Shown: positions 22,011 through 25,691 of the stretch, in pieces
Numbering within the stretch: the first letter of the stretch is position 1
How the letters are laid out: every line of letters begins with the position of its first letter
IMG/VR virus record: IMGVR_UViG_3300036781_000120
Span: 1 to 51,016 of that record
Origin: a virus
Taxonomy: Duplodnaviria > Caudoviricetes
DNA length: 51,016 nucleotides
Strand: one strand, 5' to 3'
Made by a program: the position numbers and the translations under genes
Notes under the pieces: model-generated
The model's database searches: none
Told to the model about the DNA's origin: nothing
The model's input: only the letters and a program-made list of their open reading frames with translations

Positions 22011-22820
22011 TCAATAAAGTACTTCATACAGCGCGAACATTTCGGACGGATCGGAAAATATCATAAGCGCTCTTTCGTCTAAAATATCTTCAAACTTGAT
22101 TTCGCAGATACTTCCGCAATCCGGTAAAACGATTTTAGAATCGCGACCCTCATTCGGATCCAGTTCGTCAAGGAAAACACCTTTGATACACGTTCTGCCG
22201 ACTTCTCTTTCGCACTCTGCCATACGTAAGAAATAAGTCGGGAAGTCAATACGGATTTTATTCCAATATCCTTTGCCCCCTTTTACGCAGCCGATACAGT
22301 TATTATTCGAGTAGCCCAAAAGATACATAGTAGGAAGCAGTATTCCGGCTTCGGCCAAAATATAAGCGCATTCATCTTTTATAATACGCGATTCGATTAA
22401 AGGAAAACGAGGTGATGTTTCGGGGTATTGCTGCAAAAATCGTACAGCCCGGTTTATCTCTTTGAGGGAAAACTCAAACCCGAATACCTGAAGCGTTCCC
22501 ACTGGGTATTGTTTCTGGACTTTTTGACGTACGAACTTTTTTAAATGGGACGTACAAAAAGCGCGCCCAGCTATGTTCACAAAACCCGTGTCCTCTATAA
22601 CTTCGAATTGATCTGCATATTTTAAACTCCTGGTTCGTTTTATCATTTTACCGAACCAGTATTCACAATCTTCTATAAACCGTTCGTTATCGGGATGGGC
22701 GCTACCTATTTCGATATACCATATGTCTACGTTATCCATTCCGTACTTTTCGATAGCTTGCTTACAGGCAACCGCCGAGGTAATTCCGCAGGAAAACCAG
22801 CAGATAACTTTTTTATTCAT
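22011..22820 (-). CDS. PAPS-reductase-like (PP-loop) family protein
   Basis: WFSCGITSAVA PP-loop, FCTSHLKK, YSNNNCIGCVKGGKGYWNKIR; start revised to ATG 22820 after TATATTTG-GGAAACCAACAAA. Confidence 0.8.
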   Translation of the reverse strand: MNKKVICWFSCGITSAVACKQAIEKYGMDNVDIWYIEIGSAHPDNERFIEDCEYWFGKMIKRTRSLKYADQFEVIEDTGFVNIAGRAFCTSHLKKFVRQKVQKQYPVGTLQVFGFEFSLKEINRAVRFLQQYPETSPRFPLIESRIIKDECAYILAEAGILLPTMYLLGYSNNNCIGCVKGGKGYWNKIRIDFPTYFLRMAECEREVGRTCIKGVFLDELDPNEGRDSKIVLPDCGSICEIKFEDILDERALMIFSDPSEMFALYEVLY

Positions 22821-22855
22821 AATATTTTTGTTGGTTTCCCAAATATACGAAATTA

Positions 22856-24157
22856 TCAATACAACTTCTTAGCCGGCGCCGCTTTATTTCCGTAATGATC
22901 GATAATAACGTAACGCAGCTGATCCCAAAAGTGGTTGAACCCGTCTTTAGGATCGTTGGTGTACTCCCCCGACTTGTTTACGTTATACACATATTTAGCA
23001 ACCTCTTCCCAGGCAGCTTCCCCGCATTCGTTGTCATTTACGATATAAAGTTCAAGTCCTTTCATTATACCGATATGGGCTTCGATATCTTTGGGACCGC
23101 AGGGAACAGCGTAAAAGCCGTGTACCAATTGCGGGTATTTAGCTAAAATTTCTTTATCCAGTTTTGAAGCGGGCCAGCCCCTTGACAGTTGTAAAATAGT
23201 ATCCGGCTCCGCGTGATCACAAATAATACGATCGTTCTTTGTAAGCTTTAAATTGCAATACATTTTACCAAGCTCTAAAACTTCTTTCGGCTCGTAGTTT
23301 ATCAGCCTGGCATAAACGCGGTTCTTATCGAACTTAGCGCCGCCGAAGGCAGCTGGCGCTGCTGTACCGAAATCCTGCCCGAAGTACTCTTTTAAAGTTA
23401 AGTTGTGATAATCCTTAATCGAATAAGGTTTACACTTAGTAAAGATTTGCCCTTTGCGGCCTGAACTCGAATAGCCTTTTATAGCGGTTAAGAAATAATG
23501 TTTATCGTACGTCGGGGAAGACGGATTACCGTATTGCTCATAATTGTAGATTATGTGTTCAGGTAGAAAGTTATTGTCGGTGTAATTAGTTTGGATACAA
23601 ACAAAACCTGGTAATTTTTTAGGTATGAGTTTAAAATAACCGTCTTCTACCAGGCGTTCGCCGTATTCGTCATACTGGAAATTTCCTTCGCTGTCCAGGA
23701 TCGGAACGTTTTCAAAAGTGAAATACCGCTTCGAAATAAAATGCGAAATGTCAGGAGTGTTTAACATTATGATAACGATACAACCCTGTTTACGAAGGCT
23801 ATCTACGAAAGTGTTATACTTCATAGGGTCGTTAATGTCTTCGCCCTCTTCGATTATGGCTATGTCGATATCTGAAGCACCTTTTAAATTTGCACGCTTA
23901 CTATTGTCTGAAGCCCGGAAACCTTTGGTATAAACCAGCGTTTTACCAGACTGTTTATCTTTTAGATCGTGTTCATTTTTTACGAAAGCACCGTCTAAAT
24001 GTCCGTCCCGGTTAGCTGTATCATACCGCGCCCAAATTTCGTTTAGTATGCTTTCCCGAATCAATGCTTTTTCGTCGCGGACTATGACACAGCGTTTTTT
24101 ATGTACCGTGGCTGAGAAAGCAATAAACTTGCTTACCTCGTAGGTTTTCATGCCTCC
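22856..24157 (-). CDS. terL: Terminase large subunit, downstream segment (from the second half of Walker A)
   Basis: GGMKT, Walker B IAIIEE, coupling motif MLNT, nuclease motifs GQDFG, CDHAEP and DGFNHFWDQLRY (PBSX/Terminase_3-like). Confidence 0.9.
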   Translation of the reverse strand, partial: GGMKTYEVSKFIAFSATVHKKRCVIVRDEKALIRESILNEIWARYDTANRDGHLDGAFVKNEHDLKDKQSGKTLVYTKGFRASDNSKRANLKGASDIDIAIIEEGEDINDPMKYNTFVDSLRKQGCIVIIMLNTPDISHFISKRYFTFENVPILDSEGNFQYDEYGERLVEDGYFKLIPKKLPGFVCIQTNYTDNNFLPEHIIYNYEQYGNPSSPTYDKHYFLTAIKGYSSSGRKGQIFTKCKPYSIKDYHNLTLKEYFGQDFGTAAPAAFGGAKFDKNRVYARLINYEPKEVLELGKMYCNLKLTKNDRIICDHAEPDTILQLSRGWPASKLDKEILAKYPQLVHGFYAVPCGPKDIEAHIGIMKGLELYIVNDNECGEAAWEEVAKYVYNVNKSGEYTNDPKDGFNHFWDQLRYVIIDHYGNKAAPAKKLY

Positions 24158-24168
24158 CCGATACTTCA
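24158..24168 (-). other. 11-nt coding gap in terL (candidate translational bypass: UGA AGUAU CGG)
   Basis: Removing these 11 nt fuses IVCIGGR to GGMKT and restores Walker A; the CGG codon is repeated on both sides of the gap. Confidence 0.7.
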
Positions 24169-24258
24169 CCGCCCGCCGATACAAACAATTAAGTTCGCGT
24201 CGGCGGGCAGGTTATATAGGGTTTTAAATTGATCAGATACTTTTACGTTTATCGGCAT
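24169..24258 (-). CDS. terL: Terminase large subunit, N-terminal 30 codons
   Basis: MPINVKVSDQFKTLYNLPADANLIVCIGGR followed by TGA; typical terL N-terminus (F..LY, hydrophobic strand, GGR); its start overlaps the end of the HNH gene. Confidence 0.85.
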
Positions 24259-24871
24259 AATACTGCATTACTTCTTCAAGTGTTTTAGTTTTTAACTGGT
24301 AATAAAATCCCGACGGATTAATTTTAAAGTGTCGCGCCCAGTCCGCTAATATCATTCTTTTACCATCGTGTTCAACCCAAACGTTCTTTTTTATGTTTTG
24401 CCCTTGCTCAACGTATGTTGCCCAAAAACAATTGTTTGGACCGTAATCTCCGTTAACATCAAAGCGTTCAATAGTAAACCGGCCGCCTTTTACGCCCTCG
24501 GGACGTTCGCCCATATCGGTTATGAAGTTTTCAAACGAGTTGATCCAACGTTCACAAACCTTTATACCTAAGGCGCCGTATGCGGGATAAGATATGTGTT
24601 TAGGATCGTTGCAACGCTCTTTCATCCCCCGCCATACGCGATAAATCGGATCCTTTGAACGACCATGCGTTTTATTAGCTTCGCTAGCCTTATCTTTTTG
24701 CGAGCAAGTGCAGCTTTGAGTATGTCCGCTTCTAAGTTTATTCCCGACTACAACAACCTCGTTACCGCAATCACACTTACACAACCAGGCTGCGGCAGTC
24801 CTGATATTTTCAACGCGCTTTAAAACTGTCAATCGGCCAAACTTTTGACCTGTAATGTCTTTTAATTCCAT
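24233..24871 (-). CDS. Free-standing HNH-type homing endonuclease
   Basis: DITGQKFGRLTV..WLCKCDCGN..SGHTQSC N-terminal domain; WRGMKERC, YGALGIKVCERW and TIERFDVNGDYGPNNCFWAT; inserted between terS and terL with its own TATATTTG promoter; start revised to 24871. Confidence 0.9.
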   Translation of the reverse strand: MELKDITGQKFGRLTVLKRVENIRTAAAWLCKCDCGNEVVVVGNKLRSGHTQSCTCSQKDKASEANKTHGRSKDPIYRVWRGMKERCNDPKHISYPAYGALGIKVCERWINSFENFITDMGERPEGVKGGRFTIERFDVNGDYGPNNCFWATYVEQGQNIKKNVWVEHDGKRMILADWARHFKINPSGFYYQLKTKTLEEVMQYYADKRKSI

Positions 24872-24911
24872 AATAGTTATTTGGTTTAATACCCCAAATA
24901 TACAGCTTATG

Positions 24912-25691
24912 TTATTCAAAAACAATGGGTAATTCTGATAAATTTATACTTACAGTCCGGGTATTATCTTCACTGTATTTACCGGCAATTTTCAACAGTT
25001 GTATTGCTGCATCCTTAGCGTCGTAAAGCTCTACCTCGATACCGTCTTTAGTTTCTTTGTACTTTTTAATTTTGCCGTTTTCGTGATCCGCGCAAATCTT
25101 ATTCAGGTCTAAAACTTGTTTTTTGACCAGGTAAGTATCGCCTAAAACGATACGCTTTGCTAGTGGTCCCTTTTTACGGATCTCCGTTTTCAAAGCTACA
25201 ATGTTTAAAGCAATTTCTTTTTGTCGCTTTTTAGACTGGCTAACATCTAACTTTGTTTCCGCGTACATACATTCGTATTCCTGTTCCGCTGTTAAATCGA
25301 TTTCCAGGTCTTGCAACAAATGTTTTAAAGGGCGCTCGATCCAATCCTGCTGCGGTAATACGCGTTCCGTCATGTACTGCTTTAAATCAGTATCGGCCAT
25401 GCTGCGTAAAATTCGAAGGTTATCATCTGGAACGCCGATTTCCTGTTCTAAGACGTATTCGATATAAGCCTTAACAGCGGGCCGGTTATACGTCTTAACG
25501 CCGTAATTGCTTGCTGTGCTTTCAGGTTTACCGAGATCCCGGGAAGCCTGGGTTTTGTTAAGCCGCTTTAAATAAAAGTTTGCCCAGCGTAAATGCTGCG
25601 GGTCCTCAATCGCGGCCGCTAACTGGTCAACATCTAAAATCGGTTTATCGTCTTCGCTTTGCACGGGGTAAATATAAAAAATATTTGACAA
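24912..25691 (-). CDS. terS: Terminase small subunit
   Basis: N-terminal HTH (WANFYLKRLNKTQASRDLG...RPAVKAYI) and C-terminal IEVELYDAKDAAIQLLKIAGKY; true start may be GTG 25664, just after TATATTTAC. Confidence 0.8.
   Translation of the reverse strand: MSNIFYIYPVQSEDDKPILDVDQLAAAIEDPQHLRWANFYLKRLNKTQASRDLGKPESTASNYGVKTYNRPAVKAYIEYVLEQEIGVPDDNLRILRSMADTDLKQYMTERVLPQQDWIERPLKHLLQDLEIDLTAEQEYECMYAETKLDVSQSKKRQKEIALNIVALKTEIRKKGPLAKRIVLGDTYLVKKQVLDLNKICADHENGKIKKYKETKDGIEVELYDAKDAAIQLLKIAGKYSEDNTRTVSINLSELPIVFE

Follow-up and report, generated by a model that had tools for sequence, protein, structure and literature searches.

A broken large terminase gene in a plausible Bacteroidota phage, probably expressed by short-range translational bypassing at the Walker A motif

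Known bypassing systems and the split terL gene

Natural programmed translational bypassing is known from very few systems: gene 60 of phage T4 and its relatives, one yeast mitochondrion and, as a candidate, the terminase of the Streptomyces phage Hau3. The virus record IMGVR_UViG_3300036781_000120 (Duplodnaviria; Caudoviricetes), the whole of which is the window analysed here (51,016 bp, CheckV completeness of 99%), shows a gene for the large terminase subunit, terL, that is broken into two open reading frames (ORFs) inside the codons of the Walker A loop. Comparison with related sequences indicates that this gene is probably expressed by programmed short-range translational bypassing, or 'stop-hop'. 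In kind, this would be programmed translational bypassing whose closest parallels are T4 gene 60 and MobA and the Hau3 terminase. A first-pass annotation of the sequence had assigned the virus to the phages of Bacteroidota, which is plausible from the titles of the metagenome-assembled genomes to which related contigs belong.

The inserts called byps, in the mitochondrion of the yeast Magnusiomyces capitatus, are 27-55 nt long. They are many, short and non-coding, are translationally bypassed, and behave as mobile or recurrent elements (as cited in PMC5009743 and PMC10732093). In T4 gene 60, pairing of the mRNA on its exit from the ribosome, in the 5' and the 'extended' stem-loops, has been proposed to drive bypassing (bioRxiv 2024.12.09.627546). 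T4 MobA shows an endonuclease gene upstream, a replaced 5' segment and then the bypass; some of its relatives keep the bypass without the endonuclease, and very close ones are insert-free (bioRxiv 2022.08.31.505936). The Hau3 terminase gene contains two 10-nt inserts beginning with UUA, and as extra residues are not tolerated at the junctions, bypassing was preferred there to frameshifting (PMC10732093). In E. coli, a stop placed between matched codons also leads to stop-hops (Weiss et al. 1987, as cited in PMC5009743). In the literature covered, no description of a terL bypass in a Bacteroidota phage was found.

The packaging and structural module of the window lies on the minus strand of a densely coding genome and shows the order terS (25691..24912), an HNH-endonuclease-like ORF (24925..24233) and terL. 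This last gene is in two pieces in different frames, a 30-codon ORF and then 433 codons starting from GGA GGC AUG AAA ACC; read from the ATG at 24258-24256, the split site is ...GTT TGT ATC GGC GGG CGG TGA AGTAT CGG GGA GGC ATG AAA ACC. The ORF listing contains a 30-amino-acid (aa) ORF at 24166..24258 (MPINVKVSDQFKTLYNLPADANLIVCIGGR) and a 442-aa ORF at 22856..24184 (MYRRAVKYRGGMKT...). The parts of the split gene are the following:

24169..24258, minus strand: terL codons 1-30 (MPINVKVSDQFKTLYNLPADANLIVCIGGR), encoding beta-strand 1 together with the first half of the Walker A loop, aligned without gaps to the N-termini of 18 relatives.
24169..24171, minus strand: take-off codon CGG (Arg30); no sense codon follows it in the 30-aa ORF, and the hairpin has its 3' end here.
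24161..24168, minus strand: non-coding gap of 8 nt, UGAAGUAU, starting with UGA (24168-24166), missing from unsplit homologues and of 5, 22 and 1 nt in the split relatives L001, L002 and L036.
24158..24160, minus strand: landing codon CGG, the same triplet as at take-off and its earliest recurrence on the 3' side.
22856..24157, minus strand: resumed coding of terL, GGMKTYEVSKF... to the stop, 433 codons, with matches to Terminase_3 and PHROG 2.

The first-pass annotation had placed the split, the 30-aa peptide, the two CGG codons and the stem correctly to the base, and its 463-aa terminase was obtained again on recomputation: an 11-nt skip from CGG to CGG gives a product of 463 aa, colinear with the unsplit homologues, and only this product contains the whole Walker A loop, which is present in neither ORF alone. 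The 442-aa ORF belongs to Terminase_3 (PF04466; 49.4 bits against a cut-off of 23.2, Pfam 5e-13) and to PHROG 2, and the TerL profile gave no match among PDB sequences. In the unsplit homologues P0002 and P0007 the Terminase_3 match begins at residue 23, within the part encoded here by the 30-aa ORF.

The gene call of the window, P0001 (431 aa), begins at the in-frame AUG (24151-24149) located 3' of the landing site, that is, at the Met of GGMKT, and the two pieces might accordingly be made as separate polypeptides, the 30-aa peptide and a protein starting at this Met. This is highly improbable, since L001 and L002 show no ATG, GTG or TTG before the Walker lysine, the downstream piece would be without beta-strand 1 and GGRGG, and its match to the Terminase_3 profile starts at position 11 versus position 4 in unsplit homologues. 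The start Met of P0001 has a GGAGG only 1 nt before it, and a Met preceded in this way may plausibly lead gene callers to mis-annotate such genes systematically. An essential phage gene is here mis-annotated by gene callers, as the first-pass annotation had anticipated.

The broken site in relatives

The protein search gave 530 relatives, of which the best 120 clusters were inspected, and the DNA of relatives came from IMG/VR (82 loci), JGI/ENA metagenomes (51 loci) and GTDB genomes (eight loci), with the N-terminus scanned by tblastn. The motif is intact in 107 of the best 120 clusters, typically as ...NL[IV]ICIGGRGG[KMAQ]KTYEVSKF; G28, G29, R30 and K34 are invariant in 25 aligned unsplit sequences, and these show no indel at [IV]GGRGGxKT. 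Among cultured phages, only distant matches in Clostridium phages, with 22-25% identity, were obtained. Besides the window, the Walker A split was found in three contigs: L001 (the same as L003, and 100% identical to L083), L002 (the same as L004) and L036. L001 and L002 represent 80%-identical phages, L036 a distant one. Among 65 distinct sites chosen by a motif script, four are split (window included) and 61 unsplit. A pattern scan of viral contigs gave 58 matches, located in terL only in the two known contigs; the metagenome scan yielded only L083 as a further split locus and the scan of GTDB genomes none. The four split sites are the following:

Window: CGG UGAAGUAU CGG GGA, gap of 8 nt, frame change +2.
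L001: CGC UGACA CGC GGG, gap of 5 nt, frame change +2.
L002: CGG UGACGUAAAGAGGGCGUAAAAU CGG GGC, gap of 22 nt, frame change +1.
L036: CGA U CGU GGC, gap of 1 nt, frame change +1.

The relatives agree with what had been predicted of them from the window, an uninterrupted GGRGGxKT in some and inserts of variable length between matched codons in others. The flanking Arg codons are identical in three of the four split loci, L001 having CGC in place of CGG on either side, and synonymous in L036, where CGA and CGU are codons decoded by one inosine-containing tRNA-Arg. In all four, no cognate triplet comes between take-off and the landing codon, and a skip from Arg to Arg restores exact colinearity with the unsplit homologues. 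A UGA is directly 3' of the codon used for take-off in the window, L001 and L002. The AUCGG found before the landing codon of the window is also present in L002 and L036.

An ordinary programmed frameshift near the stop (-1 or +2 in the window) would place one to three extra residues in the P-loop, such as GGR-KYR-GGMKT or GG-AVKYR-GGMKT. In the window, no stop interrupts the -1 frame between TTG 24184 and the end of the gap, and this frame is likewise open in L001, the read-through products are still strong profile matches (741 versus 749 bits), and known frameshift sites are also accompanied by a hairpin and a stop codon. However, there is no slippery heptamer, GGC GGG CGG is unable to re-pair at -1, the relatives need different shifts (+1 or +2), and no single shift rescues L002, whose gap contains a TAA in the +1 frame. 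The extra residues would also fall in a loop free of indels in the 107 clusters mentioned above, and the second Arg codon, present in every split gene, is unneeded for a shift. Against a profile of the 25 unsplit sequences, the hop product exceeds the frameshift product by 5-8 bits in the three of three loci where a frameshift is possible. Because the shifts differ, L002 has this TAA, and L001 and L002 show no start codon, one frameshift rule or separate initiation is unable to serve all the split loci, and we regard a frameshift as an unlikely explanation. Three other candidates were ruled out: transcriptional slippage on the A-run after the landing site of L001 and L002, by the 0-frame UGA upstream of the run; a phage-encoded suppressor or special tRNA, by the absence of tRNA genes in the window according to ARAGORN; and a rare 'hungry' take-off codon, as CGG makes up 22.5% of the Arg codons in 30 long ORFs.

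With a DNA identity of 74-88% among them, the window, L001 and L002 show the same break and the same hairpin. Among these three, omega ranges from 0.05 to 0.30 in the N-terminal 30 codons (0.19-0.30 for the window versus L001 and L002) and from 0.04 to 0.10 in the rest of terL (0.065-0.096 for the resumed part of the window), with a synonymous divergence (dS) of 0.67 between L001 and L002 and of 1.0 to 2.3 versus the window. Judged by these substitution ratios, both halves of terL are under purifying selection, and because omega is low on both halves across this dS, the break has outlasted saturating synonymous change. This bears on the explanation by a broken gene, which supposes a defective phage, or a recent mutant swept into the assembly, with TerL supplied by a helper or co-infecting genome. 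Defective genomes do occur in metagenomes, the unsplit P0002 is 98% identical to the TerL of L001, and the split state is scattered and unstable: on a FastTree tree of 122 TerL rows the 12 split rows require at least 11 changes, no fewer than shuffled labels, with five of these 12 labels resting only on the start position of the gene call. We nevertheless give a broken gene very little probability, in view of the selection on both halves across saturated divergence, the break and hairpin kept in these three sequences, the matched codons retained at the gaps, the 1-nt form common to P0078 and P0086, proteins only 66% identical, and the 99% complete, densely coding genome.

An assembly error is ruled out. 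The separate assembly of Logan is identical over 23900-24500, with a word depth of 18.8 and no variant, a check made on contigs, not reads, from the single public run found to contain the stretch, a soil metagenome that may be the source sample; the assemblies of L001, L002 and L036 are broken at the same codon. No RNA run was listed as containing the stretch. The gap might instead be present in the DNA and be removed before translation, by RNA excision or editing or by polymerase realignment between the 3-nt repeats, or an insert-free DNA subpopulation might exist. Direct repeats do flank each gap. The Logan contig shows no variant, though contigs drop rare ones, and the stop right after the first repeat and the hairpin ending there are unneeded for excision. 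Excision of 1-22 nt between 3-nt repeats is not known from any mechanism of bacteria or phages, and we consider removal before translation improbable.

The hairpin and the proposed hop

Two structures are predicted around the take-off codon:

24169..24210, minus strand: 5' hairpin of 17 bp (arms 24210-24193 and 24186-24169, loop 24192-24187), the minimum-free-energy fold, ending on the take-off codon.
24157..24221, minus strand: possible outer extension, CCC.AUAU (24221-24214) with GUAU.C.GGG (24164-24157), in an 86-nt fold of -38.9 kcal/mol (z -5.6).

The stem formed by CUGCCCGCCGA (24210-24200) and UCGGCGGGCGG (24179-24169), with the inner GCGAAC/GUUUGU, is the minimum-free-energy fold and reaches -30.8 kcal/mol (z = -6.5), with none of 200 shuffles as good. 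The outer extension of the window is weaker evidence than this core hairpin, and the analogous 10-bp extension in L002 is much clearer: there, the 10 nt that immediately precede the hairpin on its 5' side are paired with bases 4-13 of the gap (CGUAAAGAGG) to give a 26-bp structure of -51.1 kcal/mol (z -8.1), and 9 nt stay unpaired ahead of the landing codon. All four split loci show the hairpin, with two pairs altered on both sides, and the folding energy is -18.6 kcal/mol for the gap of 1 nt, -27.7 for 5 nt, -30.8 for 8 nt (-38.9 with the weak extension) and -51.1 for 22 nt. When the 60 nt ending at the Arg codon are folded, the split loci rank 1, 2, 3 and 7 of the 65 distinct sites, and the top three are the split genes of the clade of the window; the rank-sum chance is about 1e-5 if the loci are independent, yet three of them are one clade. 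The hairpin would act as a stimulatory mRNA structure.

In the proposed bypass, the ribosome would translate codons 1-30 and stall when UGA enters the A site, the P site being occupied by CGG with its peptidyl-tRNA-Arg. About a dozen nucleotides 5' of the P site lie within the ribosome, and at the stall the 5' arm of the hairpin would already be outside it while the 3' arm would still be in the mRNA exit channel. Refolding of the hairpin would pull the mRNA forward until the helix is complete, and the retained tRNA would leave CGG and re-pair at the next cognate triplet, which is the identical CGG located 11 nt downstream. From GGA, decoding would then resume and give ...IGGR-GGMKT..., with an intact Walker A loop in a 463-aa terminase. 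The hop itself, its efficiency and the driving role of the hairpin are inferred. The locus shares these traits with bypassing: two out-of-frame ORFs that make up one colinear protein, matched codons, a stop in the A site (not in L036) and mRNA structure.

Several points weigh against this reading. The locus shows no A-site stem-loop like that of gene 60, a Shine-Dalgarno-like element is found before the landing site only in L002, and CGG is not a rare codon here. The class of L036 is without a stop after take-off, UCG following instead, and the commonest form elsewhere is likewise a 1-nt gap without a stop. This 1-nt class matches a 4-nt tandem duplication, for example ...GG[ACGA][ACGA]GGG, and since such an origin yields matched codons automatically, these codons alone are no proof of selection. 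Only four lineages are readable as DNA, three of them in one clade; the hairpin ranking and the single CGG/CGC covariation represent few independent events, and the covariation observed in the four sequences is matched by 26 of 500 shuffles. Since codons for Pro (CCN) and Gly (GGN) are inherently complementary, unsplit genes also fold, with weaker stems down to -20 kcal/mol.

As far as the cited sources describe T4 gene 60 and MobA, the locus resembles them in the matched take-off and landing codons, the stop just 3' of take-off and the 5' stem-loop forming on mRNA exit, and in an endonuclease-like gene located just upstream and overlapping the start of the split ORF out of frame. Of the hallmarks of gene 60 bypassing named in the first-pass annotation (matched codons, an adjacent stop and stem-loops), the matched codons, the stop and a 5' hairpin are present; that annotation had foreseen neither the missing A-site stem-loop nor the stop-free 1-nt form that is commonest elsewhere. 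L002 without the HNH-like ORF, P0002 without the insert, and a mosaic boundary at the gap are parallel to the relatives of MobA. Unlike gene 60, which encodes the topoisomerase II large subunit, the host gene here is terL, at its Walker A motif and in a different host phylum; the gap is of 8 nt (1-22 nt in relatives) versus 50 nt, there is no evident nascent-peptide motif (KKYK in gene 60), and the upstream ORF is without a detectable Pfam HNH domain. At the sequence level, where no homology is found, the element is an analogue of gene 60 and MobA and not a member of their group.

The available description of Hau3 also shows short frame-breaking inserts in a large terminase gene, junctions conserved in insert-free homologues and stem-loops nearby. 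The trigger there is a rare UUA in the A site, tied to the bldA tRNA of the host, whereas here it would be UGA (a sense codon in the 1-nt class), the site is in the Walker A loop and the gap length varies among relatives. Unlike the byps, found at many sites in a yeast mitochondrion, the inserts described here have struck one hot-spot codon repeatedly. The synthetic stop-hops of E. coli are low-level, artificial and stimulator-free (PMC5009743), in contrast to a natural, conserved site in an essential gene with a strong hairpin. At one site, matched codons enclose gaps of 1, 5, 8 and 22 nt and the hairpin grows with the gap; this makes a compact natural series, because of which the proposed forward-driving role of mRNA refolding is directly testable with small reporters. 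If bypassing powered by such a hairpin holds, no earlier natural series would have shown the length of the driver helix co-varying with the distance bypassed, and the locus would be a minimal test system for the model of exiting-mRNA pairing.

Distribution and origin of the inserts

Among the best 120 clusters, 13 are without the intact motif. The call made for the window itself begins with MKT, another three are uninformative because they begin far downstream, and the remaining nine have their start at the second half of the loop or just ahead of it (P0010, P0013, P0022, P0034, P0078, P0083, P0084, P0086, which is L036, and P0111). About 8% of the nearest TerL gene calls or clusters look truncated or split at the Walker A spot, scattered over the tree. 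A profile search with the N-terminus gave 11 mini-ORFs of 30-69 aa, three of which continue through GGRGGxKT and eight leave the TerL frame right after GGR; one of the eight, P0125, is the piece of L001. The gaps of the Logan/ENA proteins (P0002, P0010, P0013, P0078 and P0124-P0131) were back-inferred from peptides, by hand for P0010, P0013 and P0128. Six of seven back-translated tails fit only one extra base and an extra Arg codon before G[GA]xK[TS]; the tail of P0128 is too short for this test and by hand fits a 2-nt gap. The diverged TerL of P0124, P0126-P0131, P0010 and P0078, from other phages, show apparently one extra base and an Arg codon after GGR, and no stop. The class with one extra base may represent a minimal 4-nt hop or a +1 shift.

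The 4-nt tandem duplication that this class resembles might be the repair scar of a staggered cut, and matched codons may reflect origin as much as selection. In the window, the 11 bases of the insert do not cleanly duplicate the 11 before them. A 7-nt direct repeat, GTATCGG, is located at 24182-24176 (Ile-Gly codons, in the 3' arm of the hairpin) and at 24164-24158 (end of the gap and landing codon), 18 nt apart, and may be a trace of the origin of the insert. Whatever this origin, a functional TerL needs the block skipped.

Upstream of terL, the window contains two genes that overlap each other:

24233..24925, minus strand: homing-endonuclease-like ORF that follows terS and overlaps, in a different frame, the start of terL, PHROG 374 'HNH endonuclease' (1e-67).
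24912..25691, minus strand: terS, small terminase subunit, PHROG 51 (2e-10), with a weak Terminase_2 match under the Pfam cut-off.

The PHROG 374 match of the homing-endonuclease-like ORF covers only profile positions 188-404 of 617, and no match was found for it in Pfam (HNH domain included), NCBIfam or PDB sequences, with which the ORF is a candidate nuclease only. In L001/L083 the corresponding position contains a homologue with 44% identity, and none of the other loci searched has one. Instead of the HNH-like ORF, L002 contains an unrelated segment of 171 nt, after which homology returns 3 nt before the terL ATG. The terS-terL interval of L002 (2715-2885, with a 54-aa ORF) and that of L083 (1828-2497, with a 208-aa HNH-like ORF) are wholly different segments, and because homology breaks cleanly at both segment ends, the interval is, on this alignment, a swap hot-spot. 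P0002, unsplit, belongs to the tight clade of the window; its protein differs from that of L001 in four of the 30 N-terminal residues and then in none until residue 223 (192 residues; Fisher p 0.009), a pattern that, read from the two proteins, is a mosaic boundary at the gap. By analogy with MobA and gene 60, we tentatively propose, as a rather doubtful origin, that the insert is part of a homing-endonuclease-like element targeting the Walker A DNA, or an immunity scar against it. A wider proposal is possible although short of probable: an ultra-short (1-22 nt) bypass class would recur at the Walker A Arg codon (GGR|GG) in terL of many soil Bacteroidota phages, gained and lost many times as the immunity scars or cargo of a homing-endonuclease-like element, and powered by refolding of a 5' hairpin whose helix length scales with the distance skipped. 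The locus hints that homing endonucleases and translational recoding co-evolve at the P-loops of ATPases.

In L096 (1-190), a related terL at the contig end has its Walker A region replaced by an in-frame N-terminal segment that is unrelated (...CVICVKNFELTYSREGKVETLKGYW...), which could be another kind of insertion or a chimeric contig. Directly after terL, the window contains a PAPS-reductase-like gene (22011-22859, minus strand; PHROG 424, 3e-43), an unusual neighbour for a packaging module. Counted from the end of the terL stop codon, its listed TTG start is four bases upstream, and the gene is auxiliary in the PHROGs classification.

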